Of a DNA stretch of 64,000 nucleotides, positions 8,731-63,965 are shown one piece after another (the first letter of the stretch is position 1; each line of letters begins with the position of its first letter). The stretch lies in the NCBI GenBank assembly GCA_000004985.1, contig GG738848.1; one strand, written 5' to 3'. Made by a program: the position numbers and the translations under genes. The stretch is from Naegleria gruberi. Its lineage: Eukaryota. A model generated the notes under the pieces. That model did no database searches and was not told the origin of the DNA. It saw nothing but the letters and a program-made list of their open reading frames with translations.

Positions 8731-11700
8731 ATGTCATCCTCAAATCTTGCTGAAACTGATGCAGCAGCAAGTGACACATCAAAATCATCGTCATTAACAT
8801 CTAACCTCCTTCCTCTCCTGGACCAACTTTCTCAATATGCCCTCGATCTCTCACAAAACAAAATCTTTACCACCTCACTCTGTGATTACATTCAAAGTGC
8901 CTCACAACAAGTTTTCCTCTATGAAAAACTTGTTCAAACCAATCCAGATAATCCCTTCATTGCAACAATGAATTATTCCGATGTTCAACGTGTAGCCGAT
9001 GCCCTTCATGAGGCTTGCATCTACTTGATGGAAGTTCTCGGCAAGGATCCACAATTCTCTCGAAAGGAAGACGCTCAAAACGATTACATGTTTGAGCGGG
9101 AAGATCGTGAACAAGTGGGAATGATGAAGGTGCGTACCTTAAATATCATTGAAACGACGCGAAAAGCCAATACCAACTCGCTCAACGAGGTGCAAAAGAG
9201 AAAAAATTTACAGGCGCAACAAGTCTTTCAATTCGATTTGCACGCTCGTTTGTATAACTCAAAGAATGGTGTTGTTCAACCTGAGGAATTGACCAATGAT
9301 TCGAGAACATTCCACACCATCGGAAATGAAAATAGTGGAGGAAGAGATTCATTGATGAAAAAATTGTTTCACGTCTTGAATAATCAAATTGCTCAACAGA
9401 AGGAACATCAGGCTCAACAACAAGCTTTGGCTGAGAAGGGAAAGGCTGTTATTAGTGCAGCTGATAGTTTGGCTAGAAATTCTGCTCAGAGATTAAAGGT
9501 TATTCTTGTGAATGGTGTTACTGGTGTTGGTAAAAGTAATTTCTGTAATACCATTTGTAGAGAATTATGTGATCAAAATCCTGATACCATTCAAAGAAAA
9601 TTCCATTTGAGATTGAGAGCAAATACTAAATTTTCTCTCACTGTAAGTTTTCAAAGATATTCACAAGTTTTAAATTTATTCTATTTCTAATAACTATTGT
9701 ACTTAACTGATAATGAACTGATTGGATAATTTATTGAATTGTAATAATACTATTTTGGAATTTTTCAAAAATTAGACAACAGAAGCCATGCAATATGTTG
9801 TTCAAACATGGCACGTTGGACCATTGCCAATTCATGAAAAACAACTTCGTGAATTGTATCAACAATCTTTTATTGGTGTGACAACAATTCTCTATTTGGA
9901 AGATCCAAGTAATATCCATCAAATTTTGGCTCTCTTACCAAATATTAAATATTCTCCATCCAGTCGTGCATTTGTTGTCATTAGTTCTAGATCACAATTG
10001 AAATTGGAATTTGATAGATTCTCAAAGGGTTATATTGACCTTGTAACTGACTCTGGTGTCAAACAAATTAGAGATAGAATTGTTGAGCTCGATACTGCCA
10101 ATACTGAAGGTAGTATTGCTGCTGATCAACATGATTTGGATAATTTTTCTGATCACGAATCTGACTTTGAAAGTGATGATGAAAGTAGTGGAGAAAGTGA
10201 TGAGGAAGAAAAGCCAACCAAAGCAGGTAAAAATGACAAGTATCACATTAAAAAGACTCCACAACAGAAAAAGATGGAAAAGGAACTCAAATCAATCTTT
10301 GGTAGTACCAAGAAGAAGACATTTGCCATTCACATTGGTATCAAGGATGACGATGAAAAAATTCCAGTCTTCCAAAGACACTTTGATGTTATTTATTGTA
10401 CATTGGAACCACTAAGTTTTGATGGAGGTGCTGAAATGATGCAACACCTCAACCCACAACTCCAAAGTGACGAGACAAGATCTGTCTCTGCTTTGGCTGA
10501 AAATTTACCAATATTTATCAAAGTTCTCACCAGATCTCAAATGCTCTATGGGGGTGACCTGTCTGATTACTCATTTGCTATTGGTTCATTCATGGATAAG
10601 TATGGCAACACTGATTTCCCACAATTGAGAAAACTTTGTCAAGGTTTCTTTATTGGTATCTGTGAAAAGTGGGACAAACAACTCAGAAATTTTGCACTCA
10701 AACTCTCAATCTTCCCATTCTCTTTTGATGCTGTCAGTGTTGGACTCGTATTGGAAACTCCTCTCAATGAAACATTACGCTACCTCCAATATTTGATCTT
10801 CTTTGGTTTGATTGTTCAGTGTGAACCTGGTAGATTTAGTATGCATGACTTGGTCAGAGATACCTTCCAAATTTACAAGGATGAAGAAATGAGCGATAGA
10901 GATCCACTTAAGAATGATATTGCCGAATGTGAGGAAAGATATGTCCAACACTATTTCAACTTGTTGAGATTATACAATATGCAACATGAATACTCTGGTA
11001 TTATTTACATGCCTGGTCCTGAAAGGTATGACATGGATATTGAAAATATGAAATATGTTGTTGAATTTTTGAAAGATTTGGGCAATACTGACTATGTTGA
11101 TGCTCTTAACACTGGTAGATATATTTTCAGAAATTCAATCTATGCTATTGATAGAGGTCGTCTCTACACATTCCTTGAGAGCAGTGCCGCAGTCGATAAA
11201 CTCCCTGATGATTTTGGAAAGGCCAACTTTTTCGAAGGTTTTGCCATGATTTACTTTGATTTGATGGATCACAAGAATGCCTACATTAAGGCAAAGAAGG
11301 CCCTCGATTTATTAGAGAATGCTTGTATTTTGAGTGATGTACCAAGTGACGAACTCAAACAATTACCAGTACTTCTTCTTGCTGGTGAAATTGCCTTTAG
11401 ACAAAATCAACAAGATATTGCTCTCAGATTCTTTGAAAAGATGGTTACTCTTGCCAATAAGTATGCTCACGACTGGCAAAAGATTACAGTGGAAAAGAGT
11501 AGTGATCCGTTTGCTATCGTACAAGGTTTTGAGGAAAATGAAGTAATTGTCAAGGATATTTTTATTGGAAAGTCTTATATTTGCCAAGCCAAGATTTACA
11601 TGCAAAGAGGTGATGTCAAGAATGGTAAAAAGTTCTTTGAAAGAGGTCTCACCATTATGCAACGTATTTACCATCGTTACCATCCATTTATCAGTGATGC

Positions 11701-13093
11701 TTTTGCTTCCTATGCTCAACTTCTTCGTGATTTCAAATCAAGTCAGTACTATGAAGACATTTGCAAGTACTATAAGGATGCTATTGAAATTGATACCAAG
11801 ATTTTTGGTGAAGATTCATTCTCTGTTTGTGAAAAGTTGGATGGCTATGCTGTTGCTCTCTTGATGCAAAACAATTACGAAGCTGCCGAACCAATTTTCC
11901 AAAAGACCCTCATTACTAGAAAGAGGTTCTTTGGTGAGAATGACATTACTGTCAGTTCAACCCATAACAACTTGGCTGTCTGTTTAAAGCACTTGAGAAA
12001 GGCCGATGAAGCCAAGATTCATTATGAAGCCTCTCTCAATATTTTGACTGACTTGTTTGGTCCAAATGACTCTAGAGTTGCTACTATCAAGACCAATGTT
12101 GCCAAACTAAAGTTGGAATTCTCAGAATCATATGAAGACGCTGAAAAGACTTTCCAAGAAGCTCTTGAAACATTGAAAGATGAGAATATCCATGAAAAGG
12201 GACGTCAAATGGCCAGTACATTGAACAGTTTGGGTGATGCTTCTCGTCAAAGGCAAGACTATACAAAGGCTCTCGAATACTATGAACAAGCTATGGCTAT
12301 ATTGGAAGAAGTTAAAAAGAAGGCCAATACTGAGAGTACTGAATATTCTGAAGTTATTTCTGAGAGTGTGAAAATTCTCCTCAGTATGTCCAACTTGCAC
12401 TACGACAAACAAGAGTACAAACAAGCTGAAGAATTATTGGAACGTGGTTTGGAAATTATTCAGAAACATCTTGGTGGCGAGAACCATCCTCTCTATCCAA
12501 ACTATCTCAGTTTGGCAGCCAATACCAAACTTAACAAGAAGGATTATTCAGGCGCTGAAGAATACTATCATAAGGTTATTGAAATGAAGATTAAGCAAAA
12601 GTTACCTCCAACAGGTATTATGCCAACAAATCAATCTTTGGCTGTCTGTTTGGATCGTCAAGGTAAATATGCTGAAGCTATTGAACAATACCAAAAGGTC
12701 TTGAACATTCTCAATGAAAGCTTTAAGGATGATTTGGATAAGCAAATCTCAGTCATTAGAGCTATTGCAAGTGCCAGTACAAAGAAGGAACCAAAGGATT
12801 TTGCTACTGCTGAAAAGTACTTTGCCGATGTTGAAAAGTTAATTGTTAAAAAGACTGGCTCTGACAATAATATTGAATATGGTGAAATTATGAGTGATTT
12901 GGGAGCTTGTAGAATTCAATTACAAAAGTATGAAGATGCCATTCTGAACTTTGCAACCTGTGAAAGAATCTTTTCTGAATTCTTTGGAGACAATCATGAC
13001 AAGACCATTACTGCCAGAGAAAATGTTCAAAACTTGAGAACTCTTATGCAACAACAAAACATCAAGCAAGGATGCCCATGTACATTAATGTAA
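8731..13093 (+). CDS. NB-ARC/STAND P-loop NTPase with C-terminal TPR array (NLR-like; about 1409 aa; exons 8731..9642 and 9776..13093)
   Basis: ATG at 8731 verified. Exon 1 ends in phase 0 at ...FSLT|gtaagt. A 133-nt intron leads to acceptor attag|ACAACAGAAGCC, in frame with ORF 9788. Motifs: P-loop KVILVNGVTGVGKSNF, Walker-B-like TTILYLEDP, TTR-like FVVISSRS, MHD motif GRFSMHDLVRD, then repeated kinesin-light-chain-type TPRs (e.g. NLAVCLKHLRKADEAKIHYEASLNI). The ~250-aa N-terminal domain is of unknown type. C-terminus is ...QGCPCTLM, a CaaX-like box. Confidence 0.8.
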
Positions 13094-13397
13094 ACATTAT
13101 TAATAATAATAAAATGACAATATTTTGAGATCCAAAAAAACTGTAGATGATTATGGAGGTGAAATATTTCACATTCATATCGCCGTTGATCTATTTCTTA
13201 CTACTCTCCAATGACGGCTACACGAGTAGTGAAAGCTTCAAAATAAACTGTTTTTTGTAATCTCTATCTCCTCAGCATCCAACAACAGTAACGACCAACA
13301 AGAGTGAAGATCCATATAGACAACGCGGAGTAGCTGTTAATACAGCGTTTTGATGTGAATGAACCAAACCCATTAGAAAAAACAACTTGAAAAAAAA

Positions 13398-15426
13398 ATG
13401 TTCAAGAAGATCAACACTCCACAACTCATCAACAAGACCGCTTCCACTGGTGCTCGTTTGTTCTCTACCAAGATGAACAAGCAAAGTGTCAAGAAGGTAC
13501 CAATGATCATCAATGGTGAAAAGAGAATTTCCCAATCCAAGGAATGGTACGAAATTCACAATCCAGCCACCAATGAAGTCATTGCTATGGTCCCACAATC
13601 AACTGATGCTGAAATGGCTGAAGCTGTTCAAAACTCAAAGCAAGCCTTTGGTGAATGGAGAGATTGGAGTGTTTCTCGTAGAGTTAGAGTCTTGTACAAA
13701 CTCAGACAAATGCTCGAAGATAATACTCAAGAATTGGCTCAAATGATCACTGAAGAACAAGGTAAAACTTTGAAGGATGCTGAAGGAGACATTTTCCGTG
13801 GTATTGAAGTTGTTGAACATGCCTGCAATATGTCTGTTCTCCAAATGGGTGATACTACTGAAAACATTGCCAAGCACATTGATATTTACAGTTATAAGCA
13901 ACCTTTGGGTGTTACTGCTGGTATTTGTCCATTCAACTTCCCGTAAGTGTTTTTATTCACCATGTGTTTTAATTCTTATTCTAATATCCAATGATGATGA
14001 TGATTTGTAAATTTTAAATTATTATAATTTAACGAATTGATGATGATCAAATATGCATTATGCAAACAATTAAAATGCATTATCAAATAATGATCTATCT
14101 GATGATGATCCTATTTCTATTTGGCTTGTTTGGTGATTCTTTCCCTTCATCATCATGACCAAATATATTTTCATCATGATGCTAACCGACAAAATATTGG
14201 ACCGATAATATTATCTCCTTGATGATTCACACTATTATCTATATTTGTGTATAATTATTATCCATCCAACAAACAATTATTTGTTGTTAAATAATAATAA
14301 TTTTAACACACACTTGTTGATCAACAACAAATTCACACAACAATCAATATCATCATCATCCTGCTTGTGAATACATAATAATAGAGCCATGATTCCATTG
14401 TGGATGTTCCCAATGGCTGTTGCTACTGGTAATACTATGGTTTTGAAGCCATCTGAACGTGACCCAACTACTGGTGTCAGAATTGTTGAAATGGCTTTGG
14501 AAGCTGGTTTGCCAAAGGGTGTTGTCAACGTTATTCATGGTAAGAAGCAAACTGTTGACTTTATCTGTGATGCTCCAGATATCAAGGCCATCTCATTCGT
14601 TGGTGGTAACACTGCTGGTGAATACATTTATGCTCGTGGTACTGGTAATGGTAAACGTGTCCAAGCTAACTTGGGTGCCAAGAATCATGCTGTCGTTTTG
14701 CCAGATGCTAGAAAGGAAGATACTATTAATGCCTTGTGTGGTGCTGCTTTTGGCGCTGCTGGTCAAAGATGTATGGCTTTAACTACTGCCATTTTGGTTG
14801 GTGAAGCTAAGGCATGGCTTCCAGAAATTGTTGCCAAGGCCAAGACTTATAAGGTTAATGTTGGTTCTGATCCAACTGCTGATGTTGGTCCATTGATTTC
14901 ACCTCAATCCAAGACTCGTGTTGAAAGCTTGATTGCTTCTGCTCAAAAGGAAGGTGCCAAGATTGATTTGGATGGTCGTGGTGTCGTTGTTAAGGGTTAT
15001 GAAACTGGTAACTTTGTTGGTCCAACCATCATTTCAGGTGTTAAGAATGTTCACACTTGTTATAAGGAAGAAATCTTTGGTCCAGTTATGCTCATCATGA
15101 CTGCTGAAAATTTGGATGAAGCTATTCAAATTATCAACTCTAATCCATACGGTAATGGTACTGCCATCTTTACTAGATCTGGTCCAGCTGCTCGTAAATT
15201 CCAATTCGAAGTTGATGCTGGTCAAATTGGTATTAACTTGCCAATTCCAGTTCCTCCACCATTCTTCTCATTCACTGGTTCAAGAGCTTCAATTAGAGGT
15301 GATTTGAACTTCTATGGTAAGGGTGCTGTTCAATTCTACACTCAAACTAAGACTATCATGTCTAACTGGAGAGAAGATGAAAGTGGTATGAGCTTTGGTA
15401 CTGTCATGCCAACTTATAAGAAGTAA
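13398..15426 (+). CDS. Methylmalonate-semialdehyde dehydrogenase (ALDH6 family), mitochondrial; exons 13398..13942 and 14385..15426
   Basis: ATG verified. mTP-like N-terminus. Exon 1 ends ...GICPFNFP with donor gtaagtg (phase 2); acceptor aataatag|AGCCATGATTCC restores ...[15 protein letters not shown] motifs throughout; C-terminus [20 protein letters not shown] is typical of MMSDH. TAA stop. Confidence 0.9.
13943..14384 (+). other. Unusually long (442-nt) intron of the MMSDH gene, rich in TGATGA/TCATCA motifs in both orientations
   Basis: GT...AG bounded. Repeated aatgatgatgatgat / ttgatgatgatc / ctgatgatgatcc / cttcatcatcatgacc / atcatcatcatcc units. Every other intron in the window is 43-176 nt. 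Confidence 0.6.
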
Positions 15427-15517
15427 ATTAATGTAAATTAGAAAGAATGCGGATTATTTATTAAATTATATCAATTTCATTGTAATTATATTTTCAATTA
15501 TTTTGTTGGTCATCAAT

Positions 15518-15534
15518 GAGCCTTGTCCGAAAAC
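15518..15534 (+). repeat. Left terminal inverted repeat of the Harbinger element
   Basis: GAGCCTTGTCCGAAAAC is the exact reverse complement of 17685..17701. Confidence 0.7.
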
Positions 15535-15598
15535 ACTATTTTCTCTAATTTTTTCGAAATAAACAACTTGCGATTCTTTTTGACTTTCGAAAAGTTTT

Positions 15599-16615
15599 TT
15601 ATTTAAATAACACTGTTGGAAGTTCCTTTCGCACAGGTTGGAAATCGAGTGACAAGTTTGCGAATTTAGCACACACTCTTACAATTCGTTGATGTTTCCA
15701 AAGCGCGCCTCTGTATGTTTGCTTTAAAATTGCGAACTTTTTGATTCTTCCAATAATCTGTTCAACAACAACTCTTCCTTTACCTAAGACTTTGTTGTAA
15801 ATTTCGCTTTTTGCCGAAAGTTGTTCACCTTTTGGTGCTTTGTCAGGAGAAATACAAAATTCTGCGTTTTGATAAGCTTTGTCGCCTAATACTCTTTCAT
15901 TTTCAGAGAAATGCTCTTTGTTCGTTTGTAACCATTCATCCCACATCTTCTTATCGTGCTTTCTTCCTGGGAACGCATGCGAAATGTTTGCAATTTTTCC
16001 TGTTACTAAAGTAGTCACAACTTGATATTTGAGTGCATGCATTCTCTTTTTGTAAGAATAATACATTTTTTGCTTTTTCCACAAACCTCTTTTTTGCTCA
16101 CGTGACAACCCTTTCTTTTTTCTTCCTGAAGGGTTTTGAATCCTACATTCCATTCCATCAACAACAGCACGAACACGTTGAAAAACACCACTTGCGCCTT
16201 GATTTTCTTCTTTCAACCGTTCCTCTAACTTTAACTCAGGTAATTTTTCATCAACAATTTCTAAAGTTTTGTCAATATTTTCGAAATAACTTGATCTTGA
16301 TACATTCCAGTAAACATTATGAACCAAACTTTTAGGATAACAATTTAAATATTCCATAAAAATAAGAAACCACATTGGTTTAATATCATCAACTAAGTAA
16401 TCATCGTACACACGTTGTAGAATCCATGGCTTGAAGCCAAATGATGCAATAAATGACTTCACGTTGCCAACACGAAAACGAGCTTTGTACTCTTGAAATA
16501 AAGATCGCATTTTTTCGAAAGTACTTTCGAAATTAATTTCGTTCACTTTCTCATTTTCGAAACTAAAAAAAAAATGGCAAAGAAGAAACAAGCTGTAAAG
16601 GAACCATCTTCGCAA
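15599..16615 (-). CDS. Harbinger/PIF DDE transposase (DDE_Tnp_4 family)
   Basis: Conserved blocks ...VVDGMECRIQNPSG..., ...VLGDKAYQNAEFCI... and ...KGRVVVEQIIGRIKKFAILKQ... The tool's start at 16615 is TTG. The first in-frame ATG (MRSLFQEYKARF...) lies about 105 nt downstream, near 16510, and is the likelier start. TAA stop at 15599. Confidence 0.75.
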   Translation of the reverse strand: MRRWFLYSLFLLCHFFFSFENEKVNEINFESTFEKMRSLFQEYKARFRVGNVKSFIASFGFKPWILQRVYDDYLVDDIKPMWFLIFMEYLNCYPKSLVHNVYWNVSRSSYFENIDKTLEIVDEKLPELKLEERLKEENQGASGVFQRVRAVVDGMECRIQNPSGRKKKGLSREQKRGLWKKQKMYYSYKKRMHALKYQVVTTLVTGKIANISHAFPGRKHDKKMWDEWLQTNKEHFSENERVLGDKAYQNAEFCISPDKAPKGEQLSAKSEIYNKVLGKGRVVVEQIIGRIKKFAILKQTYRGALWKHQRIVRVCAKFANLSLDFQPVRKELPTVLFK

Positions 16616-17569: not shown

Positions 17570-17684
17570 CAGAAAGCGAAAAGAGCGACAAAGAAGAAGA
17601 ACAACAAGATCAACCATAAAGCGGCTTTATTAAATGCGTGTACTTTCGATTTTACATATTTACCACGAAAATTCGAAAAAACAG

Positions 17685-17701
17685 GTTTTCGGACAAGGCT
17701 C
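17685..17701 (-). repeat. Right terminal inverted repeat of the Harbinger element
   Basis: GTTTTCGGACAAGGCTC is the exact reverse complement of the left TIR and is followed by AAT, matching the left flank. Confidence 0.7.
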
Positions 17702-17923
17702 AATATCTAGATATTGAATTATAAAACCAAATGGAATCTAATTATTATTCAGATAGTCTCACAGATAAATGATAAATAATAAATATTATTAAACATTCAG
17801 AATCTTGTTAAATAAGCCATATCCTAATCTATTGAGGATGAAAAGAGCACATGAAAGGAGCAAAAATTCCTCACAAGGATGAACCTTTTACAAATACTGA
17901 TAATTGACACTTAACAAAAATCA

Positions 17924-53400: not shown

Positions 53401-56400
53401 AAAGTCTTGAGCAGGAATACTCTACCCTTTCTCTCAACAACTAATCTCAAAAGAACCATTTTGAGGAAGGAAAAGTTTGGTCTCTCAAATAAAGATAATA
53501 ATTGACGAGCTATTGGGCTAGATGAAATAAAATCCCTAATGGAATCACCTCTCTCCACTACTAGAATCAGTCTCTTTGAGAAGGTAGACATGGCACATCG
53601 TATTGCTGCTAGTAAATGGACATCCTTGATAATGTCTTTCCAAGAGGCAACGTCAACAAAATTGTCAGAGACAGATTCTAAAAGTTTAGATAATTGTTCT
53701 TCTGGTATGTTTTGAAGCACGGACTCATAAATAGACAAGTAGCTGATGAGTGTGCTTTGATCCAGAGATTCTGTCTTTGGACTGAGTTCTACTTTGAAAA
53801 TTTCCTTCAACTCTTCATTAACAAGTGGCTTGGTATTCTTATTGAGTAGGAGCTTTTTGAGAATGCTAACTTTGAGGTTTTGTGTTGCCTGCTTCATTAA
53901 TTGATTGAATTTTTCATTCTCTCCCTTGATAAGACCCATCAGTGCTCCAACAAGAGGTTTTTCAATGTCATCCTCTTTTCCAATTCTCCTCACAAGGAAT
54001 TTAGCTGTGAACATTTCAAAGAATCTAGTAATGTTGGTCTTTTTTCTACTTTCATCTGATTGGTTGGTTTTGTCGTTTTGAATATTATCTCCAATCTTGT
54101 TAACCAAATCTAAAAAGTATAATATCAAATCCAAACTACTTTGAGATGACAAACTCTTGGTTTTCATATTTTGCCATAAAATCATGGATATTTCCCTTAC
54201 AATACCGAGAGGAATTGCAATTTCTTGGAGGTACTCCTTGTAGAATTGAAGTTTTTGCCATTTTTCATGAATGTATCCAATATTCTTCAACATTGAACTT
54301 CTTGGGCCACCTGTCAAGTTTATAGTAGTACTGTGAATGAGAGTGATGAGTACTTCTACTGGGCTCTTAATATCTGTCAGTGTTTTGACCCAAATATTTC
54401 TTCTCTGGTTTGCAACAGTAATATCATGAGAGGTTTCAATATTTCTTGGATCCAAGTTATGATAAATAACACTAAAGAGCAGCATGTCAATCTCTTCAAT
54501 GGAAGATATTCTCAATGAAGGAACAAGAAGTTTTTGAAGGAACTTTCTCTGAAGAACAGACTTTGGGAAGGTTTCAAACAAGACATAATATGATTGAAGT
54601 CTTCTCTCCTGTCTCCAATAGAATGAAAGTATTTTAGCAATATTTGATCCTTCAGAAGGGTCTGCATCTAACATCTTTTTGATAATCTCATATTGTACCT
54701 CATTAGTTAACACTGTACACTGAACACCACAGATACACATGTAATCATAGAGGAAAAATTCAGAATATTCTCTTGGCAAGTTGTTCATGAAAGGATAGAT
54801 CATGTCAATATGCTTTTGTAAGGCCTCATAAACTCCCAATCTAGAACTTTCACATACACTTCTCCAGCTATGTAGATTTCTACAAACTTCGTAACTGAAA
54901 GGATATCTTGCTTGGAAAATTCTATTGTTATTACCATCACTCTTGACTTCTATTGGTTTCCATCTGAGTAGCTCAGCCATCGAAGATATTGTCTGTTCAT
55001 TTCGTGTTAACATGTGATTCACTGAAGGTCTCTTCAGGTCATCCAAAAGTTTAATCCACAAGTTTGTGCCTTCAGTTCTGTTGGTACTCTTGTATTCAAA
55101 GAAGAGTCTCAAATTGTCGTTTCTATCAATTTCAGCCAAAAGGAATGTAAATGATTTGATTAATATTCTCTCGACACAGTATTGAATAGCTGAGTGGTAT
55201 GTATTCACAACAAGGAAGTATTCGTTAATGTGGTTGGCTACATAGGTTGAGTAGAAGTTAATTTGATTTTGAGAAAAGTAGTCATGACAAATCTCCAAAA
55301 CCTTCTTGTTAATAACTTTCCAACATTCATCAGAATCAATGAGTTCGTTTGTTCTTGAAATTAAAAGAGTAATGTCATTAATTTTGGTATTGAATTTTCT
55401 TAGCATTGCCAGAGAGGTACGGAAGTTACTCTTAATAACTTGTCTCACATTAGTAGTTTGAATTTGTTCGGTGAATGGTCTGTTCAAAATTTCATAAATT
55501 GTAGTTTCTGTTGGTCTTATTTCATCAATAAATGCAAACTTCCATGGAATGTCAAATTCAATCAAGTGCTGACTGTTAATTGATTTTCCTGGAACAACAT
55601 TGATTAAGAGTAAAATGTTCTTTCCGACACTCTCACTAGGTGAGATACACTTTCTGTGCTTTTGGATTATAAACTTGGTTTGGTTCAAAAGGTCCAAATT
55701 CATATTTTCACATTGCAAAACAAGCAAGTGTTGTCCATTTGCTGAGGTAATTTTCTTTCCAAAGAATTGTTTTACAAGCTCTATTAATTCCATCTCTGAT
55801 TTGAGCTCAGCCATAGAAACAACAGAATGGTATTCTATGCTTGCTCCAATCTCTCTGGATGCCTGAATCAAGTTATCAATATTAATAGATACAGATGAAT
55901 AGGTAAGTAAACAAAGTTGGAAATATCCATAATAAATTAAGGAATTTGAAGACAGACCATTTTGAGATTGCTCTTGCAAAGAACCGAGCAAGAAATGAAG
56001 TAAATGAGGAAGGTCTCTGTGCTCTTGCTTTTCAAAATATGTTTTCAGATATTCCCTTGTTCTACTATTGTTGATAGAGGACATTCTAACCACAGCATCT
56101 GCAGTTGTAATCCACAATAGAGCATTCTTACAAATATCCAACAAGTAGTCATGGAGAGAAGGATCCTCAATTTGCTTGGTATCTAGTGATAAAACAAGCG
56201 ATTGAAGGAGTGATTTGTGAGTATTAACAAATGGTTTTTCATCATCACCAAAGGTTGTCTTGACCCACGATTGCAATCTACTGCACAAGTTCTTTACATT
56301 AACAGAGGCAGATTTGTCAAAGAGATCATCTCTGTGAAGTGTTTGCTTCTCAAATCTGTTGAGGAGTGGCTTGGCAAGTCGTGAGTAGGCATCGTCCTGA

Positions 56401-59400
56401 TCCACAATAACAATAACTCTAAAGTTCTTGTGAACAGAACAAATTCTACTGTATGTACCAAGTGAAATACCAACCACTCTATTCTCATCATACTCTATGT
56501 ATTGCAAATTGAACAAGTCGTAGAGACTTTCATATAATTGTTCACAATTTACCAAGACTACTGTTTTACCAGTTGACATGGCATTCTTAATTCTTTGAAT
56601 ATCCATACAAACCTGAAGTTCTTTAGTACTGTTAGGGAAGTTTGGACCAAAGACAACTTCTGCTTTATCATATGCAAGTAATTGTTTAAATTCTGAGAAG
56701 AGAATAGAGAGGGCAGCATTATTCTTTGTGAGTAGCATTAAATGTCTTGCCTTGGTATCGTTCAAATTTTCAGAAATATAATCCAACTTTGACTTCCTAT
56801 TGCTGATAATATTCATACCAACACAGGAGAAGAAGATATTCAAAACTCGAAGGAACTCTTCATTATTTGATCCTCCAAAGTTTCTGGCAAGAGCATCTGT
56901 GAGTAGCTCTGGTGAGAGTGTACCGTCAAAGTTTCTGTTAATAAACTTGACAGTGTGGTAAAAATCTCTCAATCCGAAAAAGTCCTTTCTTTGTTGACCA
57001 TTATATACATCATGGTAAGCCTTGGCCAAAGAATAGAGAGTACTGTCTAAATGCACAGAATTTACAATACCAGACAAGGTAGTTTTGAGTTCAAATGTTG
57101 AAGGTGAAGGTCTGGTCAAATAGACTGCTCTATTGATAAGGTTAGGATCCAATGTCCAGTTAGAAAGACCAATCACAGAGACAGAGCAATCCTCTTCCAA
57201 TTCCTTATTGACAACTTTGAGTGGATGGGAAGAACTATGTTCTAACAAGCCAACCTCGTTCAATAAAACTATGGCAATAGAATTTGGAGAATTCTTCTGA
57301 TATCTCTTGGCAGATTCAAAGCAACTCTTGACGCTCTCAGGTGTGGAAATTTGTGAACATTGATAAGTGAATATTTCAAGAGAAGGCAATGAGCGTAAAA
57401 AACTATTGACACTGGCTGTTCCATTGAGATTAGTGCTCAAAATCTCTAAACTCAATGACTTGGAAGAGCCACTCTTGCCATTGATGAATATTGGAATCCT
57501 ATTCAGTACACAAACAAGGGTCATGAAAATATTTTCTCGCAGAGCATGATTAAGTGCCACTCCCTTTGGAATGTTCAAGTGCATCGTGTAGTATCTTTGT
57601 TCTTCTGTGAGAGTATTGATAAAGTCACCCTTTTGATAGGAAAAGTAGGAAGCAATTTTGCTTCTTGAAGAGGTGAATAAATCTTCCAACTCCTTCACAA
57701 ATTCATCACGCTTGGAACTCAATCTGTGGTAATAACAATGTCCAAGAGAAAGTATGATAGAGTTCTTGATAATAAAGTTTGATTCCTCTAGGAAAAAGGT
57801 AGGATCAATACCATTTCTCTTTGAGAGTGATTGATAAAAGCTCTTGAATAAGTTAATGCAACGTTTAACATCTCTCAGATTCACAGCACTTCTTTCCATA
57901 TAAACCTTTCTAATGAATGATTGAGAGGCAAATATGAGCTCTGTAAAGCAATCAAAGAAGAGTCCAGACTTTCCGATATCCTCAACATTGATTTCCATGA
58001 GTAGAATGGCTCTAATGTATAACTGTTCAATAATAGGATTCAAAGAGCCAAAGTTAAATACATGATCCAAAATAGAGACAGGCATTGGATATACCTTATA
58101 GATAAGACATTGTGAAAAAACTTGAATATCCAAACCTGTGGTTCTTTGGAGGGCTCTAATATTGTCTTTCAAAATATCAGATTTTTGACCAGAGGAACCA
58201 TATTCAATGTCTGTTCCAGCATATCTTCTCAGTCTGTATGGATTACAGGAGGCAACAATCTTCAAATTTCTAGGTAGCACCTTATTATGAACACAATTGT
58301 CACAAATTAATTCTTTAAATAATCCTAAATTATTAGAGGTGTTTACCTTGTCAAAGAAGGCTATAATCTCCTTCTTTGGATTGAGTCTGGCTTCTGCAAT
58401 GAGCGGATTCAACCAATTCAAAATATCATTAGATGTGTGACCTTCATTCACAGCAAATCTCTTCAACTTTATACCAAGAACAGAGCACAAGTATTTGGTT
58501 AGTTCTGATTTACCAACACCACTATCACCACAAAGAATTGTAGGTAAATTGTATTTCATCTTGTGATAAATCATCAATACCTTGCTCAAATTATCTACAG
58601 TGAGAACGTAATTATTGCTGATTTTCTTTTCATTGGTTTCATCCTGTTTCAAGCCAGCAACATTTCTAATAATTTCTTGAGCCCTATCATGAGATAAATC
58701 TCTTGGGGTCTCCAAGTCTATACCATTACATGAAAGAGAGTATTTTAACTCTTCATTAAGTTCGAGCTTGTCAGTATTGATACCAATAAGATCAATTCCT
58801 GTTATTTCATTAATGTTACTTCTATAGAAAACAACTAGAGGATGTTGAGATGCTTGCTCCTCCCACTTGCTTAATCTATGTTCAAACATTTCGACATATT
58901 GGAGAAGTAAAATCTCAGTGTATGGTTTTCCTTCATACTTCTTAGCAAGCGAAATAATAAAGTCCTTTTCAACAGAAATAGCTGTTAAATCCCTTGCTGA
59001 CTTGATCATTAAATCAATCATGGCGTGTTTGAATAATTGCATGCTTCCTTCCATAACACAATTTTTAAAGCAAACATATCTAGAAGTGCTCAAAAATTGC
59101 CCATACAAGAATCGTACAAAATTGTTCACCACAGAGAAGGAGGCATTGTCAGGTTTGAATCCAGTGTACTTGCACAACAGCTTGAAGCAAGCTTTCAGAC
59201 TCAAGTCTGGTGCCTTTACAGGATCAAAATCTGGTACGCTAGGAGCTGCATTCTTGAATACATTCTCCTCGAAGGCTTTCAAAAATTTACAAACATATTG
59301 TACCTTATTATCATCTGTGCACATAATATCAATACTATCATCTTCCATGTTAATAAGTTCATAGTTTACCAATTCCAGACTTGATTCATCTGTAGTTATT

Positions 59401-62400
59401 TCTTCAATTGGCAAAGCAGTGCAAAAGTAAACAAATTCACTCAAAATTGGCACACAAAGACTATTTGGAATCTCGATATAGAATTGGATATTTGGAACAA
59501 TATGGAAAACACTTGCAGTTTCTCTGTCTCTAACACAACCAAGATAGAACAATTCAAATAACAAGGAATTCATGTGCTTTGGTATTATGTTACAGAGAGC
59601 AAGATGGAAAGCAATTTCTTTTCCTTGATTTTGATTTGTTGTTTTCCAGAGTAGGCCAACTATTTCTTTCACTGTTGAATCTTCTAATACAGTTACTCTA
59701 CTGTATTTCTTCTTATTCAAATAGATATCCTTCAGGATAAATCTAGACTTTCCTGCACCAGTTCTATTGGAGGTAACACATTTGACATTGGATCCTTGGT
59801 ATGATTTCATTATATTTACAATATACTTCTTTGGAAGAGTTTTGAAGGACTTGTCAACATAGTTTGAAAATTCCAACAAGAGACGAGCATTGTTGTTATC
59901 TGAACCACCAATAAGAACTAGTTTTCCAGTATTTTCCTTTTTAGAGAGGGATGAAAGAATTTCCTGTATCTTGAGAAGCATTTTAGATTGAACAATGTAT
60001 GGAAGTTCTTGAATATTGGCAATGCAATACATGTTATCACGCTTTTCTTTCACCTTGGAGTTTAACCATCTATTCAAAATCAACTCGATATCCTCCATAT
60101 CAGTGCTAAAAGAGTTGCACAGCAAAACTTCCTCACTCAAAGGAAGTCTTCCACGTAGTGAGTATAAGGAAATGATAGCATCCATAACTTCCTTCTCCTT
60201 TTGAAGTTTGATAATCTTGAAAACTCCATCAAATGTATTTAACGAATATTTAGATTGGACATTGGTTGGCAATTCATACTGCGATTTTCTATAAGAATTT
60301 TCTCTTCTAGAAAAGATGCTTTCAATAAAGGAGCATAACTTTCTCATCTTCTCTTCAGCTGCACAATCGGTAACAAAGTCCAAATTGAGAACGGTAATGC
60401 AGTTTTCAATGTCAGACAGCTCTAGGTTATGATCACCAAGTTTAAGAATGGATAACAAATCATAGATGGATGATCTCTCAGAATCTTGTTGATATTTCTT
60501 AAGTAATTCGTAGACTCTCAAAGATTCCTTTGCTCTAAAAAGATTCATATAGTAATTTCCATTCCTCGAGTTCTCTGTTATCTTCTTCCATTTTTCTAAT
60601 TTTTCTAGTAATTCAGCATGATACTTTTGAATATATTCAGGAGAACACTCTGAAGCTCTTATGGCCTTGAAGTAGTTTTCTTGGAATTCAAAGTGAGCTT
60701 GTTTGCATAAATCCAGCAAGGATGCCTTGATATCCAACATTAGAGTAATACATCTTACAAAAAGATTAATCCTAGAATTAACATCATCCAACGTTTTGAT
60801 ATTGTCTGGTATTTCGCTCAACATTAACTTATTTCTCAACTCTACAAGTCCATCAATAGTCATAACCTGTTGTTGTAAACTTAATCTTCTTATTTGGGAG
60901 GTATTCATAATTGGATGTGATGGCATAATCTTACATAGAATGACACTAGGATCAGCCAAATTAAATTCATACTGTCCTCTTTCTGTAATAGCTGCAAGAT
61001 CGTAGAGAGCCTGAACACCTCCACTTCTTGTTTTCTCTTCAAACATGCTGAGGAGAAGTGTGAAATTCTTCTTCAAGTTACTCAACTGAGACAAGTCATC
61101 ATTACTAATTTCCAACTTGGTCATTGAATTCTTAAAATTTTCCAAGCTAATAAAATTAATATTTGCATGGTCAACTTGATTCGAATAGATAAAGTCAGAA
61201 ATACAATCCCTGACAACCACCAAACTTTTCAAGGATTGTAAAATCTTTACCGAGTCAGTATAACTCTTACAAATCTCTACAAGGTTATCAAATTCAGAAT
61301 TGGATTTGTAATTTAATAGCCAGTCTATAATAGAAAATCCTGTACTATCACATAGTAATTTCATGAAGGAAAGTTGATTATCGTTAAATCCTTTAAAAAA
61401 TCTAGTAAACAAGAGTAGGTTAAAGTTACTCTTTTGGTCTTCAAACATTGCCAATGTTTGGCTTTCAAGCATACTTTGTTGATTGAGAGTGTTGGACTCT
61501 TTCTTTAATTGAATATAATCAGTGTCTTTCTTTAAATCAATAGTAAAGTACGGCTCAAAATGTTCAACTAATAAGAGAAGAGAAGGTAAATAGGATCTAT
61601 AGAGATTAATCTTTTCGAAGCTATTGATAATATTCAACCTCTTGGATACCCATTCAAGATCTTCCTTGTTAGGAGTTCTATCTGACGATTTTCCATTAAA
61701 GGTCATTCTCACACTCAGCAACTCTTCTTGATATTGGACATTAGTGCTGGATAGTAAACTGTCAACTCTATTCTCATATCTACACTTTCTCAGGATTGAA
61801 TAAAACTCGTTCAATTTGATTGAGAGAGAATCGATTGACTTGTAAAATCCCAGCCACTTATTCTTTACATCTGGAACCAACTTATTCTTGATAGAATCGA
61901 TGGTGTGTTTTTCATTATTGGAAGCTTTTGTGTAGAGATCCCTCCACAAAACAAGGAAAAACTCTGAGGTTCTCAACTCGTAGAAGAAAGCCAACTCTTC
62001 AAATCCAAATGGAATGAGCTCGGATACTTGCTTTTGAATCTTTTTAAATACCATTTCTCCCATATTTCTTCTAATTTTGATGATGGTATCTAACACTAGA
62101 CTAGTATCAAAAAAGTTTGGATCATCAGCAAACATGGTCAAGAAATTCTGGGCTGCATCAAGAGTAGTCTTGAAAGAAAGCAACTCTTGTCTCAATTGTT
62201 TTACATGAGATTCATTGAATCCAACATCTCCCATCAAGTATACCAATTTCATGAACTGAGCTTCGTGTTTCAAGACCATGTGAAGAGTTGATATGGTGCA
62301 TGTCTTGTCCAATAATTGGAACACAAGTTTGAAGTAAATGTCCATCAGGGCGGAAACTTCTGTTTGGATCTTGGTAAAGTTCTCATTGCCCGAATTCTTT

Positions 62401-63965
62401 TCAGTATTCTTGATAAACTTGAAAAAGTGGTAGCACAGAGGATTTTTAACGATGGTCTCATAGCTTTGTTGTAAGTTAGAAGACAATAGCAATGTCTTTA
62501 GGAAAACCAAACTAATGTCCTCATCTACAACATGAGTAATAATCTCGAACAGTAGGACGGCCTCCTTGCTGGTTGCACTCTGAGTGATGAATTGGCAACA
62601 CTTATCAATAATGTAACTCTTCAGAGTGTTGGAAAACATGCTTCCCTTGAATCTTCCCATAAATTCTATATATTCAAAAGCAGAGAGGGAAACAAAGAAT
62701 GGTGTCAACATTAATTCGTCAAGCAAGACATGTACATATTCCTTCAAAAAGTTTAACTTGACCAATCTATCAATAAAGAGTAGGAAATTCTCTAACTTCA
62801 TTGTGTTCTGTTGACTTTGAAGAAGGAACAAGAGTGAGGTGGAATTTCTTTTTGATTGGCTGCTGGTGACTTCTTTAGAATCACTTGACTCCACAATTCT
62901 GATGTTGTGGGTAAAGATGTGAATGAGCCAACGTTTTGTTCCATCAAATAATCTGAAGTATCCTTGGATTGAATTGGCTTGATTGATGTTCATTTGAATA
63001 TTTTCTAATAGATTGGCAATCTCATTCAAATCATTTTCGGTATTGATTTCTGCAACCACTGGAGATTGAATCATACAATAAATAATCTCTTCATTTGGGA
63101 GCAAGTTACACATTTGAAATATGGTATCCAAGTCTCTTCTAGTGTTAACCAAATCTGAATTAAAGCTCTGAAGTTGATACCTGTTATTGAGTTCCTTGAT
63201 CTTTTTCTTTAAACATTGAAAAACTGTTGATCTGATCTTTTGTGAATTGTCATGATAAATTAATGAATGGTCCTTCATCTTCTTTATCAATGCCAAGAGA
63301 GATTGGAAGCTTGGAGCATTTGAAATTAATCTTTGAATATCTAGAGAAATTTTCTTTTCCTTCTCTGAATTAAAAATTTCCTTCTCAAAAACTTCATTCA
63401 TTTGCTCAATATTTTCACAACTTGTATAGTCAATCATGTTTTCAGAGGAATTCTTTTCAGAGCTGAATAATTCTTCGTCAGATGAAGAGTTTGAATCAGA
63501 TGTTACAACATCTTCCTCTAGAATAGGTTTTGATTTGACTTTTGGAAGTTGTTTTGGAGAAGCTGTAATCATTCTATCCCTTGAACGAGCATCCTTCTCA
63601 GAGGGAGAACTTGGTGGAGTATTTGGCGATTGATATCCAGTCGTGTTATTATTGTTATTGGAAGGAAATGGATGAAATTGATTTCCAGCCACTGTAGTTG
63701 GTGTATTAGATCCAAAATATCCACTATAATCCTCCATAGATGTACTAGTTGTGTTGGTAGAGATGGATCCAGTTGTGGAAATTTCAATTTCCTCCTCACT
63801 TGTTGTGTAAATAAATGGAATATTCATATCTAGGTTATGAGTGAAAGAACCCTTAAATGATCCACTACTACTCGTTGATGAGAACATTTTGATTGGAAGT
63901 GTCGATTGTTGATGGCCACTGTGCAATAAGCTGTCTCCAAAAATACCCTCTCCACTGTGTTGCAT
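50424..63965 (-). CDS. RNF213-like giant AAA+ ATPase with C-terminal RZ-type zinc finger (at least 4513 aa, single exon, 5' end probably beyond window)
   Basis: 13.5-kb uninterrupted ORF, TAA stop at 50424. ATG at 63965, but the frame stays open upstream to the window edge. S/T/N-rich disordered N-terminus. At least three Walker-A modules (SNRTGAGKSRF, CGDSGVGKSELT, INGKSGSSKSLS) in a dynein-like AAA core. About 600 aa from the C-terminus: YKCANNHVYVVDSCGYPTEFAMCPECGLPIGGFDHVPHF, the RZ-finger signature shared by RNF213/ZNFX1. No RING finger found by eye. Confidence 0.8.
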   Translation of the reverse strand: MQHSGEGIFGDSLLHSGHQQSTLPIKMFSSTSSSGSFKGSFTHNLDMNIPFIYTTSEEEIEISTTGSISTNTTSTSMEDYSGYFGSNTPTTVAGNQFHPFPSNNNNNTTGYQSPNTPPSSPSEKDARSRDRMITASPKQLPKVKSKPILEEDVVTSDSNSSSDEELFSSEKNSSENMIDYTSCENIEQMNEVFEKEIFNSEKEKKISLDIQRLISNAPSFQSLLALIKKMKDHSLIYHDNSQKIRSTVFQCLKKKIKELNNRYQLQSFNSDLVNTRRDLDTIFQMCNLLPNEEIIYCMIQSPVVAEINTENDLNEIANLLENIQMNINQANSIQGYFRLFDGTKRWLIHIFTHNIRIVESSDSKEVTSSQSKRNSTSLLFLLQSQQNTMKLENFLLFIDRLVKLNFLKEYVHVLLDELMLTPFFVSLSAFEYIEFMGRFKGSMFSNTLKSYIIDKCCQFITQSATSKEAVLLFEIITHVVDEDISLVFLKTLLLSSNLQQSYETIVKNPLCYHFFKFIKNTEKNSGNENFTKIQTEVSALMDIYFKLVFQLLDKTCTISTLHMVLKHEAQFMKLVYLMGDVGFNESHVKQLRQELLSFKTTLDAAQNFLTMFADDPNFFDTSLVLDTIIKIRRNMGEMVFKKIQKQVSELIPFGFEELAFFYELRTSEFFLVLWRDLYTKASNNEKHTIDSIKNKLVPDVKNKWLGFYKSIDSLSIKLNEFYSILRKCRYENRVDSLLSSTNVQYQEELLSVRMTFNGKSSDRTPNKEDLEWVSKRLNIINSFEKINLYRSYLPSLLLLVEHFEPYFTIDLKKDTDYIQLKKESNTLNQQSMLESQTLAMFEDQKSNFNLLLFTRFFKGFNDNQLSFMKLLCDSTGFSIIDWLLNYKSNSEFDNLVEICKSYTDSVKILQSLKSLVVVRDCISDFIYSNQVDHANINFISLENFKNSMTKLEISNDDLSQLSNLKKNFTLLLSMFEEKTRSGGVQALYDLAAITERGQYEFNLADPSVILCKIMPSHPIMNTSQIRRLSLQQQVMTIDGLVELRNKLMLSEIPDNIKTLDDVNSRINLFVRCITLMLDIKASLLDLCKQAHFEFQENYFKAIRASECSPEYIQKYHAELLEKLEKWKKITENSRNGNYYMNLFRAKESLRVYELLKKYQQDSERSSIYDLLSILKLGDHNLELSDIENCITVLNLDFVTDCAAEEKMRKLCSFIESIFSRRENSYRKSQYELPTNVQSKYSLNTFDGVFKIIKLQKEKEVMDAIISLYSLRGRLPLSEEVLLCNSFSTDMEDIELILNRWLNSKVKEKRDNMYCIANIQELPYIVQSKMLLKIQEILSSLSKKENTGKLVLIGGSDNNNARLLLEFSNYVDKSFKTLPKKYIVNIMKSYQGSNVKCVTSNRTGAGKSRFILKDIYLNKKKYSRVTVLEDSTVKEIVGLLWKTTNQNQGKEIAFHLALCNIIPKHMNSLLFELFYLGCVRDRETASVFHIVPNIQFYIEIPNSLCVPILSEFVYFCTALPIEEITTDESSLELVNYELINMEDDSIDIMCTDDNKVQYVCKFLKAFEENVFKNAAPSVPDFDPVKAPDLSLKACFKLLCKYTGFKPDNASFSVVNNFVRFLYGQFLSTSRYVCFKNCVMEGSMQLFKHAMIDLMIKSARDLTAISVEKDFIISLAKKYEGKPYTEILLLQYVEMFEHRLSKWEEQASQHPLVVFYRSNINEITGIDLIGINTDKLELNEELKYSLSCNGIDLETPRDLSHDRAQEIIRNVAGLKQDETNEKKISNNYVLTVDNLSKVLMIYHKMKYNLPTILCGDSGVGKSELTKYLCSVLGIKLKRFAVNEGHTSNDILNWLNPLIAEARLNPKKEIIAFFDKVNTSNNLGLFKELICDNCVHNKVLPRNLKIVASCNPYRLRRYAGTDIEYGSSGQKSDILKDNIRALQRTTGLDIQVFSQCLIYKVYPMPVSILDHVFNFGSLNPIIEQLYIRAILLMEINVEDIGKSGLFFDCFTELIFASQSFIRKVYMERSAVNLRDVKRCINLFKSFYQSLSKRNGIDPTFFLEESNFIIKNSIILSLGHCYYHRLSSKRDEFVKELEDLFTSSRSKIASYFSYQKGDFINTLTEEQRYYTMHLNIPKGVALNHALRENIFMTLVCVLNRIPIFINGKSGSSKSLSLEILSTNLNGTASVNSFLRSLPSLEIFTYQCSQISTPESVKSCFESAKRYQKNSPNSIAIVLLNEVGLLEHSSSHPLKVVNKELEEDCSVSVIGLSNWTLDPNLINRAVYLTRPSPSTFELKTTLSGIVNSVHLDSTLYSLAKAYHDVYNGQQRKDFFGLRDFYHTVKFINRNFDGTLSPELLTDALARNFGGSNNEEFLRVLNIFFSCVGMNIISNRKSKLDYISENLNDTKARHLMLLTKNNAALSILFSEFKQLLAYDKAEVVFGPNFPNSTKELQVCMDIQRIKNAMSTGKTVVLVNCEQLYESLYDLFNLQYIEYDENRVVGISLGTYSRICSVHKNFRVIVIVDQDDAYSRLAKPLLNRFEKQTLHRDDLFDKSASVNVKNLCSRLQSWVKTTFGDDEKPFVNTHKSLLQSLVLSLDTKQIEDPSLHDYLLDICKNALLWITTADAVVRMSSINNSRTREYLKTYFEKQEHRDLPHLLHFLLGSLQEQSQNGLSSNSLIYYGYFQLCLLTYSSVSINIDNLIQASREIGASIEYHSVVSMAELKSEMELIELVKQFFGKKITSANGQHLLVLQCENMNLDLLNQTKFIIQKHRKCISPSESVGKNILLLINVVPGKSINSQHLIEFDIPWKFAFIDEIRPTETTIYEILNRPFTEQIQTTNVRQVIKSNFRTSLAMLRKFNTKINDITLLISRTNELIDSDECWKVINKKVLEICHDYFSQNQINFYSTYVANHINEYFLVVNTYHSAIQYCVERILIKSFTFLLAEIDRNDNLRLFFEYKSTNRTEGTNLWIKLLDDLKRPSVNHMLTRNEQTISSMAELLRWKPIEVKSDGNNNRIFQARYPFSYEVCRNLHSWRSVCESSRLGVYEALQKHIDMIYPFMNNLPREYSEFFLYDYMCICGVQCTVLTNEVQYEIIKKMLDADPSEGSNIAKILSFYWRQERRLQSYYVLFETFPKSVLQRKFLQKLLVPSLRISSIEEIDMLLFSVIYHNLDPRNIETSHDITVANQRRNIWVKTLTDIKSPVEVLITLIHSTTINLTGGPRSSMLKNIGYIHEKWQKLQFYKEYLQEIAIPLGIVREISMILWQNMKTKSLSSQSSLDLILYFLDLVNKIGDNIQNDKTNQSDESRKKTNITRFFEMFTAKFLVRRIGKEDDIEKPLVGALMGLIKGENEKFNQLMKQATQNLKVSILKKLLLNKNTKPLVNEELKEIFKVELSPKTESLDQSTLISYLSIYESVLQNIPEEQLSKLLESVSDNFVDVASWKDIIKDVHLLAAIRCAMSTFSKRLILVVERGDSIRDFISSSPIARQLLSLFERPNFSFLKMVLLRLVVERKGRVFLLKTFRSRASPQFPWVSSLLQGFKYTDNIPQNVLMHVLNGLEELASCVDMIMSLRQQGDYNSKTESIIKLKASLEAIINTGQQIDIHSLKKLCYLAVVDKCYLSYCSENSNKDKFTKILTSEDEVNTQSCPIDITKLKNFLLKHVLRDDKEVHMTIKFASNAFNEDSFFFLNENTTLENLTLVHVIHHICSVALSNYVTDQFWWLLLFDPSSLKDKYLPSVTDDARTQVINTIDNGTVSWYKCANNHVYVVDSCGYPTEFAMCPECGLPIGGFDHVPHFSNDKIKQDEDIAPTGYAVYEHFKERDLAATVREISPVSFRIIRLIIHSLLLVGNSIFPEREEEYRQVFHKTMSSVDNLNEFLLGHIKNDWSILCELLGGQNEEKASVLLFNILEFFSYSSKQLETKKRTNPKLPYTSRDISTKAGRSGWETHFNGCVTMITENAAKKYQLYYKQLDSIQKKGNDVITNILLFSSAGAPQELKQPILPLSDPISQIWNIKPPITYDQFKSYFIADKAERKYPILSLFIRNEHLLYPTRYIPHVVKWQKLVTNTFSRRIDRHYARTRTVRDVFSEFMSSLSLSPIHFQLGAEKASIEKIFDGWAKSFNHSWKYIERYQCLPLPAWCKNVSMSKDTPLSFSIPDEQDEGICALALIQFLVDKHNDIIDRAGKLLNKTSTESSPIEISSRFISKHHLVSFNIEEEVMPVITDSELDQDTNKQNSYKFDYQRVEQFIVNKYLSGKPKIKLELENFTFLNETRYSSGFGQVGGPVSELKSKIKQVELPTDMKQAIVSELRGGETSLDLFQSCIRQIEECISFLQAISGSNNLEEVEKMSIIDYLQNILLVDPKVTKQTLAKSYTIIVHVKLCHLVSLWSLLENELSPGASIESSSIANKYKKVLPAELVQKLDEFKNILSPDDCSMLVSSMKELLLSYFTSETLDSEIPLKQMLEITPAIGAKSQEGNKLGDYEWLLQLSDEFKTCHLFEVYRHLSMQISSNK

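Follow-up and report, generated by a model that had tools for sequence, protein, structure and literature searches.

Naegleria, an amoeba of the Discoba, is a host to Legionella, chlamydiae and giant viruses. A 64,000-nucleotide (nt) stretch of Naegleria gruberi DNA (assembly GCA_000004985.1, contig GG738848.1; referred to below as the window) carries three genes whose animal relatives are tied to infection: a STAND-TPR gene that had been described as NLR-like, a gene for a DDX60-family helicase and a giant RNF213-like gene. A sequence-only reading of the window had proposed that these genes mark an uncharacterised antiviral or anti-parasite defence island. We asked whether they form such a unit or lie near one another by chance. 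All three genes are real and have intact open reading frames (ORFs). We consider it about 80% probable that the window is an ordinary gene-dense stretch of the N. gruberi genome, in which three independently acting genes with infection-associated animal relatives do not make up a functional or evolutionary unit. Co-location by chance is the most likely explanation, and the term defence island is not supported.

Linkage of the three genes in the window and in relatives

The STAND-TPR gene (8731-13093) lies on the plus strand, and the helicase gene (20850-25976) and the RNF213-like gene (50424-63965) lie on the minus strand. Gaps of 7.7 kb and 24.4 kb lie between the three, and each has its own upstream region. 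They account for 3 of about 26 genes in the window, and a Pfam map placed about 20 unrelated genes among them, with cytochrome P450, methylmalonate-semialdehyde dehydrogenase (MMSDH), ubiquilin, ERG2, glutathione peroxidase, metallophosphoesterase, PQ-loop, SPRY, DUF4116 and Ras genes, a 5S rRNA gene and a transposon in between. The likeness to bacterial defence islands is superficial only, in that several immunity-associated gene types occur within tens of kilobases. Unlike the genes of such islands, those of Naegleria are not adjacent, and their co-localisation did not recur across the loci examined, which comprised short contigs and few close relatives. The interspersed housekeeping and other genes and the lack of conserved linkage speak against the proposed island.

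Linkage was followed in a close relative represented by metagenome and Logan contigs (L001-L003), whose STAND and MMSDH proteins are 77% and 88% identical in amino acid (aa) sequence to those of the window. The order STAND gene, then MMSDH gene, was kept there, and this adjacency was the sole surviving linkage. The gene upstream and the 4.6 kb downstream on these contigs (four ORFs, including one for an IF-2-like GTPase) matched nothing in the window, and 11 further proteins of the window (P450 through F-box/Rab), searched for in L001-L003, were without a match there. The break in synteny coincides with a PIF/Harbinger transposon at 15517-17702 of the window, an element absent from the relative's locus.

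More distant loci gave a similar result. A STAND homologue of Acrasis kona (L004) is surrounded by genes for a peptidase, a glycosyltransferase, an RGS protein, a formin and an NIF protein, and another, on a 25-kb metagenome contig (L005), by genes for an ABC transporter, F-box, LRR, RCC1 and RabGAP proteins and a kinase-AAA_16 protein. Neither the helicase nor RNF213 nor MMSDH was detected by tblastn within 5 to 10 kb of the STAND homologue in either locus. Two DDX60-family loci (L006 and L007) had no STAND or RNF213 neighbour. Finally, 80 RNF213-like loci were searched, with a total of 557 kb, of which 300 kb lay outside the RNF213-alignable span; in 19 of these loci the part outside it amounted to at least 5 kb. 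Across all 80 loci the search detected no relative of any other gene of the window, even at E<=0.01. The sequence-only reading had made conserved synteny a test of the island, and within the reach of the contigs the linkage of the three genes was kept in no locus examined (L001-L007 and the 80 RNF213-like loci).

Several points weigh against coincidence. The evidence on synteny is thin: it comes from a single close relative with a contig that stops 4.6 kb beyond MMSDH; the other STAND homologues are so distant that synteny would be lost anyway; and the RNF213-like loci are mostly taken up by the giant gene itself. Each gene is also rare in the searches, the STAND family having 19 matches among 1.84 billion representatives and the best helicase relative being 33% identical. 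If three single-copy genes are specified in advance in a genome that we take to be about 41 Mb, the probability that they all fall in one 55-kb stretch is 3 x (55/41000)^2, or about 5e-6. The triple was picked post hoc from a broad class that takes in STAND proteins, helicases, giant E3s, nucleases, F-box proteins and SPRY proteins. With K genes of this class in a genome, C(K,3) x 5.4e-6 triples would be expected, which comes to about 0.1 at K=50, 0.9 at K=100 and 7 at K=200. The argument from chance thus hinges on the size K of the post hoc "immunity-like" class, and the significance of the co-location is plausibly nil.

The RNF213-like protein and the DDX60-family helicase

Mammalian RNF213 (mysterin) is a giant AAA+ protein and E3 ligase with a RING and an RZ finger that ubiquitylates lipopolysaccharide and coats cytosolic pathogens. 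The minus-strand ORF at 50424-63965 encodes a protein of 4513 aa (5207 aa in human RNF213) that matched human and mouse RNF213 structures at E=6e-166 in a phmmer search against PDB (9g08_A), in two collinear stretches. One is the dynein-like AAA core, in which aa 1259-2657 (nt 55995-60191) aligned to human residues 1879-3341; the other is the C-terminal domain, in which aa 3722-4430 (nt 50676-52802) aligned to human residues 4507-5165. The AAA4 segment by itself matched RNF213 at E=1e-72. Judged by these alignments, assignment to the RNF213 family is strong and unambiguous. Two other parts of the protein, the N-terminal 1258 aa (in RNF213, the stalk/CBM20 region) and about 1100 aa (1101) of the E3-module region between the AAA core and the RZ finger, showed no PDB or Pfam similarity and in this respect differ from the mammalian protein.

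The RZ finger was recognised by Pfam (ZnF_RZ-type, PF20173; E=3.2e-15). In human RNF213, C4505, H4509, C4525 and C4528 are zinc ligands of the RZ finger, C4516 is the nucleophile and H4537 is the base (PMC11549300). All six Cys/His residues are present in the Naegleria protein (C3760, H3764, C3771, C3780, C3783 and H3792; nt 52590-52688, minus strand) at a spacing identical to human C4505/H4509/C4516/C4525/C4528/H4537. No RING was found. A regular-expression search gave no match anywhere in the ORF, Pfam gave no RING at E<=1 in aa 2650-3750, and the ORF did not align to the RING region of a homologue, L011, described below. The earlier claim of an RNF213-like protein of more than 4500 aa with an RZ finger was thus borne out, in a protein that lacks the RING of its mammalian namesake. 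In human RNF213 the RZ finger is required and the RING dispensable for pathogen ubiquitylation (PMC11549300), so a homologue that lacks the RING and keeps the RZ finger is mechanistically coherent. The comparison suggests that the RZ finger, and not the RING, is the conserved catalytic element. In the Naegleria protein, Cys3771 of the RZ finger would probably accept ubiquitin from an E2, His3792 would act as general base, and the ubiquitin would go on to substrates without a RING.

The AAA core keeps some, but not all, of the residues that are critical in human RNF213, namely the Walker A lysines K2426 and K2775 and the Walker B glutamates E2488 and E2845 (PMC11549300). Both Walker A lysines are kept, as K1819 (GDSGVGKS, corresponding to GETGCGKT) and K2169 (GKSGSSKS, corresponding to GKPGSSKS), whereas both Walker B motifs are changed. 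The AAA3 motif reads FFDK instead of human FFDE (E2488), with Lys1873 in place of Glu (aa 1870-1875, window 58347-58364). The AAA4 motif reads LLNE instead of human VLDE, with Asn2236 in place of Asp and with E2237 kept (aa 2234-2239, window 57252-57269). With its Walker A lysines in place and its two Walker B motifs altered, the core probably still binds ATP, whereas hydrolysis is probably different or poor, and the protein as a whole may be a nucleotide-gated AAA+ machine. It would act in a host that, unlike mammals, has no interferon system.

When metagenome contigs were scanned by pattern for RNF213-like sequence, 119 stretches were found. On one contig, L011, which we assumed to be from a microbial eukaryote, an intronless ORF of 4865 aa (1435-16029, plus strand) contains AAA modules, a C3HC4 RING (aa 3662-3705) and an RZ finger (aa 4162-4207). 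If that assumption is correct, the complete RNF213 architecture occurs outside animals and would be much older than they are; it may be widespread among microbial eukaryotes. Because the L011 homologue keeps AAA, RING and RZ together, the RING-less Naegleria form looks derived. Within the literature library searched, nothing links RNF213 and Naegleria, and searches on RNF213 in protists returned nothing relevant. The value of the locus lies at the level of single genes, here in an RNF213 homologue of a discoban amoeba whose RZ active site is fully conserved and which has no RING.

The helicase (1708 aa; XP_002682041.1/D2V1F7) matched the Pfam families DEAD (E=3e-23), ResIII and Helicase_C (E=1e-9), with the helicase core at roughly nt 22407-23879. 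Its motifs are intact: I (PTSQGKT, aa 725), II (DEIH, aa 823), III (SAT, aa 852) and VI (QACGRAGRRG, aa 1157). The best relative in PDB was kDDX60 of the Trypanosoma cruzi 43S complex (7ASE; E=2e-49), ahead of MTR4 (8e-30) and SKI2 (5e-27), and the protein is accordingly nearer to the DDX60 group than to Ski2-like helicases of other kinds. The full-length query had matched one protein only, and the database search for relatives was made with a trimmed query; we suspect that the full-length helicase query, like that with the nucleotide-binding oligomerization domain (NOD) and N terminus of the STAND protein, was swamped by low-complexity words. The trimmed query found 199 relatives at E<1e-20. 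Among the best 120 of the 199, nearly all carry WHD_DDX60 (PF26076), several are named DDX60 by NCBI, and the nearest is 33% identical. No close orthologue appeared in these searches, and a metagenome scan with the whole helicase also gave no close relative. The helicase itself was absent from its own search matches, probably because clustering of proteins at 90% identity files the 1708-aa protein under a 54-aa representative named "Rex".

Alignment of the helicase to a DDX60-family profile with hhalign (probability 100, E=2.7e-69) covered residues 679-1551 and 795 columns, including the long region that follows the helicase core. The protein was also collinear in BLASTP with P0006, a protein that carries a PIN-like domain. 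Neither WHD_DDX60 (PF26076) nor PIN-like_DDX60 (PF23002) was matched directly, even at E<=10. Despite this, the corresponding region is collinear with family members that do carry WHD_DDX60. Residues 1-678 did not align (BLASTP, hhalign) to P0006 or to the A6 profile, both of which have the PIN-like domain, and the N-terminal ~680 aa matched nothing. Compared with DDX60, DDX60L and kDDX60, then, the Naegleria protein shares a Ski2-like DExH core with all motifs and a collinear arrangement over the profile, whereas its N-terminal part and the missing direct matches to the two Pfam domains set it apart. These similarities provide good, sequence-based support for placing it in the DDX60 family. 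The prediction of a DDX60-type DExH helicase of 1708 aa therefore held for the length, the DEIH motif and the family relationship, and did not extend to direct matches with the Pfam domains specific to DDX60.

DDX60 and DDX60L are interferon-stimulated helicases of vertebrates, and the Discoba precedent, kDDX60, concerns translation initiation and not immunity. All eukaryotic kingdoms are reported to have DDX60 homologues, and the 43S complex is the binding partner of kDDX60 (PMC9724679). A DDX60-family gene is therefore to be expected in a discoban and need not be immune. The Naegleria protein is predicted to be an active Ski2-like 3'-5' RNA helicase of the DDX60 family and, by analogy with kDDX60 of kinetoplastids, the sister Discoba lineage, is most likely associated with the ribosome or with translation.

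The helicase also matched PADLOC models of Hachiman HamB (best E=5.9e-34). This match was rejected as evidence for defence and was read as general Ski2-like similarity. Many metagenomic relatives of the helicase, of about 720 to 1040 aa, carry WHD_DDX60, and the relationship between DDX60 and HamB may be worth a proper phylogeny.

The STAND-TPR protein and rival readings of the locus

The STAND-TPR gene contains one intron and encodes 1409 aa. Exon 1 (8731-9642) specifies an N-terminal helical domain (aa 1 to about 240) and the P-loop, and exon 2 (9776-13093) specifies the remainder, from a Walker B-like motif to a C-terminal CaaX box. The intron between them (9643-9775, 133 nt, GTAAGT...AG) has a phase-0 junction, and the orthologue of the close relative (L002) has a short intron at the same codon, which supports the gene model. 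On the plus strand, the motifs follow in the order P-loop (GVTGVGKS, aa 262-269, nt 9514-9537), Walker B-like (ILYLED, aa 342), RNBS-B-like (VVISSRS, aa 371), GLPL-like (NLPIFIK, aa 547) and MHD (aa 660-662, nt 10841-10849). A TPR_12/TPR_10 array occupies aa ~790-1400 (TPR_12 E=2.7e-56 in six stretches; TPR_10 E=3e-30), and the protein ends in the CaaX box CTLM (nt 13079-13090).

An exhaustive phmmer search with the part of the protein that lacks the P-loop recovered 19 matches among the 1.84 billion representatives. The family consists of P0005 (75% identical), P0007 (37%), Acrasis kona KAL0483714.1 (33%) and fragments, and it appears to be confined to Heterolobosea-like sequences. Every full-length member ends in a CaaX-like box, namely CTLM in the window and CSLM, CVIC, CIIM and CLIL among P0007, P0008, P0009 and the L002 orthologue, often with extra cysteines upstream. 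The box implies prenyl anchoring to a membrane. The N-terminal domain was predicted by AlphaFold2 (AF2), with moderate confidence, to be a helical bundle. An MLKL-, HeLo- or CC-like identity for it was considered and rejected, since the fold matches (MLKL, HeLo and ZAR1) were only among generic helical bundles. In the comparison with the L002 orthologue this domain was the most divergent part (65% identity), and the ratio of nonsynonymous to synonymous divergence (dN/dS) of the gene was about 0.1, with dS saturated; because of this saturation the pairwise ratio is uninformative for positive selection.

On the 25-kb contig L005 (17286-20945, plus strand), a protein of more than 1220 aa with a Ser/Thr-kinase-like N terminus, a P-loop (GTGVGKS) and helical repeats adjoins the STAND-TPR homologue. 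It is another STAND-like architecture; the opposite flank has F-box and LRR genes.

If the "NLR-like" gene were a generic fusion of a P-loop NTPase to TPRs, of KAP/AAA_16 type or built like a small-GTPase scaffold, only two genes of immune type would be left in the window. Several results fit this reading. Pfam NB-ARC did not match the protein even at E<=10, and its top P-loop matches, all sub-threshold, were DUF87, KAP and AAA_16 (E=0.031), with NACHT at E=0.037. The best single-sequence match in PDB was Rab-like protein 3 (E=0.35), and an acidic/basic insert of about 110 aa interrupts the NOD after VVISSRS. The AF2 model of the NOD, made for P0007, was poor, with a mean confidence score (pLDDT) of 52. 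The remaining comparisons point the other way. The query without the P-loop recovered, outside the family, P0021, P0022 and P0024 at library-wide E values of 6e-5 to 4e-4, and these proteins carry Pfam NB-ARC at 7e-12, 2e-11 and 3e-5. The nearest full-length homologue, P0007, matched Pfam NB-ARC at E=0.006. A family profile had as its top PDB match the STAND regulator AfsR (E=0.01), collinear over the P-loop and Walker B region and the winged-helix "RYxxHDLVR", and the top three Foldseek matches of the P0007 model were Apaf-1 (E=1.4e-3) and two NLRs of plants, Roq1 and WRR4A, which given the quality of the model is only suggestive. The order of motifs (P-loop, hhhhED, hhhSSR, xLPhxhK, MHD) is that of NB-ARC and is conserved in the family alignment. 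We consider a generic NTPase unlikely and, from similarities that are weak but consistent, regard the protein, tentatively, as a probable, very divergent NB-ARC-like STAND protein. Like NB-ARC-TPR STAND NTPases it has an N-terminal domain, a P-loop NOD, an MHD winged helix and a TPR_12/TPR_10 array; it differs from them in falling below the Pfam NB-ARC threshold, in the NOD insert, in a helical N-terminal domain without a specific match and in the conserved CaaX box. The TPR array and MHD motif of the NB-ARC-TPR protein described earlier were recovered, together with a P-loop, and its NB-ARC label stands on weaker evidence. Proteins of NB-ARC-TPR type have been put forward as receptors in Ectocarpus and Acanthamoeba (PMC4053784). 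From its motifs, the Naegleria protein may be a nucleotide switch of NB-ARC type that is tethered to a membrane by prenylation of its CaaX tail, in which the TPR array would sense a ligand and the N-terminal helical bundle would serve as output. The CaaX-tailed family, a small lineage-restricted group, could serve as a simple model for a membrane-anchored NLR-like switch.

Accepting a divergent NB-ARC protein leaves the question of the neighbourhood. In a true eukaryotic defence neighbourhood, a STAND sensor, a helicase and an E3 would share one chromatin or regulatory domain, would be co-induced on infection and would be kept linked by selection. That all three genes have infection-tied animal relatives, intact ORFs and preserved catalytic motifs, and that each is rare or patchy in databases, would agree with this, as would the F-box, LRR and SPRY genes of the window and the similarity of the helicase to HamB (E=6e-34), although the latter reflects general Ski2-like similarity. 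Set against these points are the roughly 20 unrelated housekeeping genes, the failure of the linkage to recur, a transposon and rearrangement breakpoint between the STAND and helicase sides, the ordinary purifying selection on the STAND gene (at the saturated dS noted above) and the choice of the grouping in hindsight, out of a broad functional class. We judge such a neighbourhood very improbable. Were it real, no free-living protist would have shown a defence-island-like arrangement before, and it would open the way to gene discovery through guilt by association in eukaryotes; literature searches on eukaryotic defence islands gave nothing relevant, and a search for the accessions discussed here found no mention of them. 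A bolder version is the least probable of the readings considered. It would have a heterolobosean cell-autonomous defence toolkit, older than animals, share a co-induced chromosomal neighbourhood in N. gruberi, with an RZ-only RNF213 marking intracellular bacteria or vacuoles, a DDX60-type helicase policing the translation of foreign RNA and a prenylated NB-ARC-TPR switch acting through a membrane-directed helical effector. Three independent genes brought together by chance remain the preferred explanation.

Other features of the window

The guess that the DNA came from a non-metazoan protist was correct: exact matches to XP_002682041.1 and XP_002681903.1, both encoded on a contig of 712,659 bp, identify the window as DNA of the heterolobosean Naegleria gruberi NEG-M. 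An origin from a giant virus or a bacterium was considered and rejected in view of these exact protein matches, of spliceosomal introns and of eukaryotic housekeeping genes. The G+C content of the window is about 34%, its ORFs are long and mostly intron-poor, and no tRNA genes were found in it.

Upstream of the STAND-TPR gene, Pfam identified genes for a cytochrome P450 (139-2097), a YccF-domain membrane protein (2244-2855) and a TmcB-TPR/PAS protein (3734-8242), all on the minus strand. The MMSDH gene, of Aldedh type and with one intron, follows on the plus strand (13398-15426). The PIF/Harbinger-type DNA transposon beyond it appears intact. It is bounded by perfect 18-nt terminal inverted repeats (TGAGCCTTGTCCGAAAAC) at 15517-15534 and 17685-17702 and contains a DDE_Tnp_4 transposase ORF (15599-16615, minus strand; E=3.7e-29) and, beside it, a second ORF (16574-17569, plus strand). 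A 605-aa ORF to which no function was assigned (18408-20225, minus strand) separates the transposon from the helicase gene.

Between the helicase and ubiquilin genes are a gene for a weak LRR protein (26316-27431, minus strand; Pfam), the gene for XP_002681903.1, which combines an F-box (Pfam E=3e-7) with a Rab/Roc-like GTPase (Ras E=3e-11; 28017-29231, plus strand), and a Ras-family gene (~29976-30521, minus strand) split by an assembly gap of 173 N at 30345-30517. Two genes for small membrane proteins follow (30988-31503, minus strand; 31996-32571, plus strand). The sequence-only reading had noted F-box adaptors and a decayed DNase I-type secreted nuclease near the three genes, and both observations agree with the map, the F-box being that of the gene at 28017-29231. 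The DNase I/EEP-like gene (32743-33809, minus strand; weak Exo_endo_phos match, E=2e-4) has a signal-peptide-like N terminus and is disrupted by an in-frame TAG (SER*EPTQKEQYGVIF) and, near 33300, by a frameshift, so that a pseudogene or an error of assembly must account for it.

The ubiquilin gene (34787-36388, plus strand; Pfam) and an ERG2/sigma-1-like gene (37184-37654, minus strand; Pfam) flank a single 5S rRNA gene (36977-37095, minus strand; Rfam, 101 bits). Downstream are genes for a glutathione peroxidase (38761-39492, plus strand; Pfam) and a split metallophosphoesterase (39582-40479, minus strand), the latter in two overlapping ORFs in different frames (39582-40043 and 40027-40479), which could reflect a frameshift or a very short intron. 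The remaining genes before the RNF213-like ORF encode a sub-threshold F-box protein (40591-42171, plus strand), a DUF4116 protein (45425-46978, minus strand) and an SPRY protein (47601-48836, minus strand), all from Pfam, and a PQ-loop-like membrane protein (48924-50195, minus strand).

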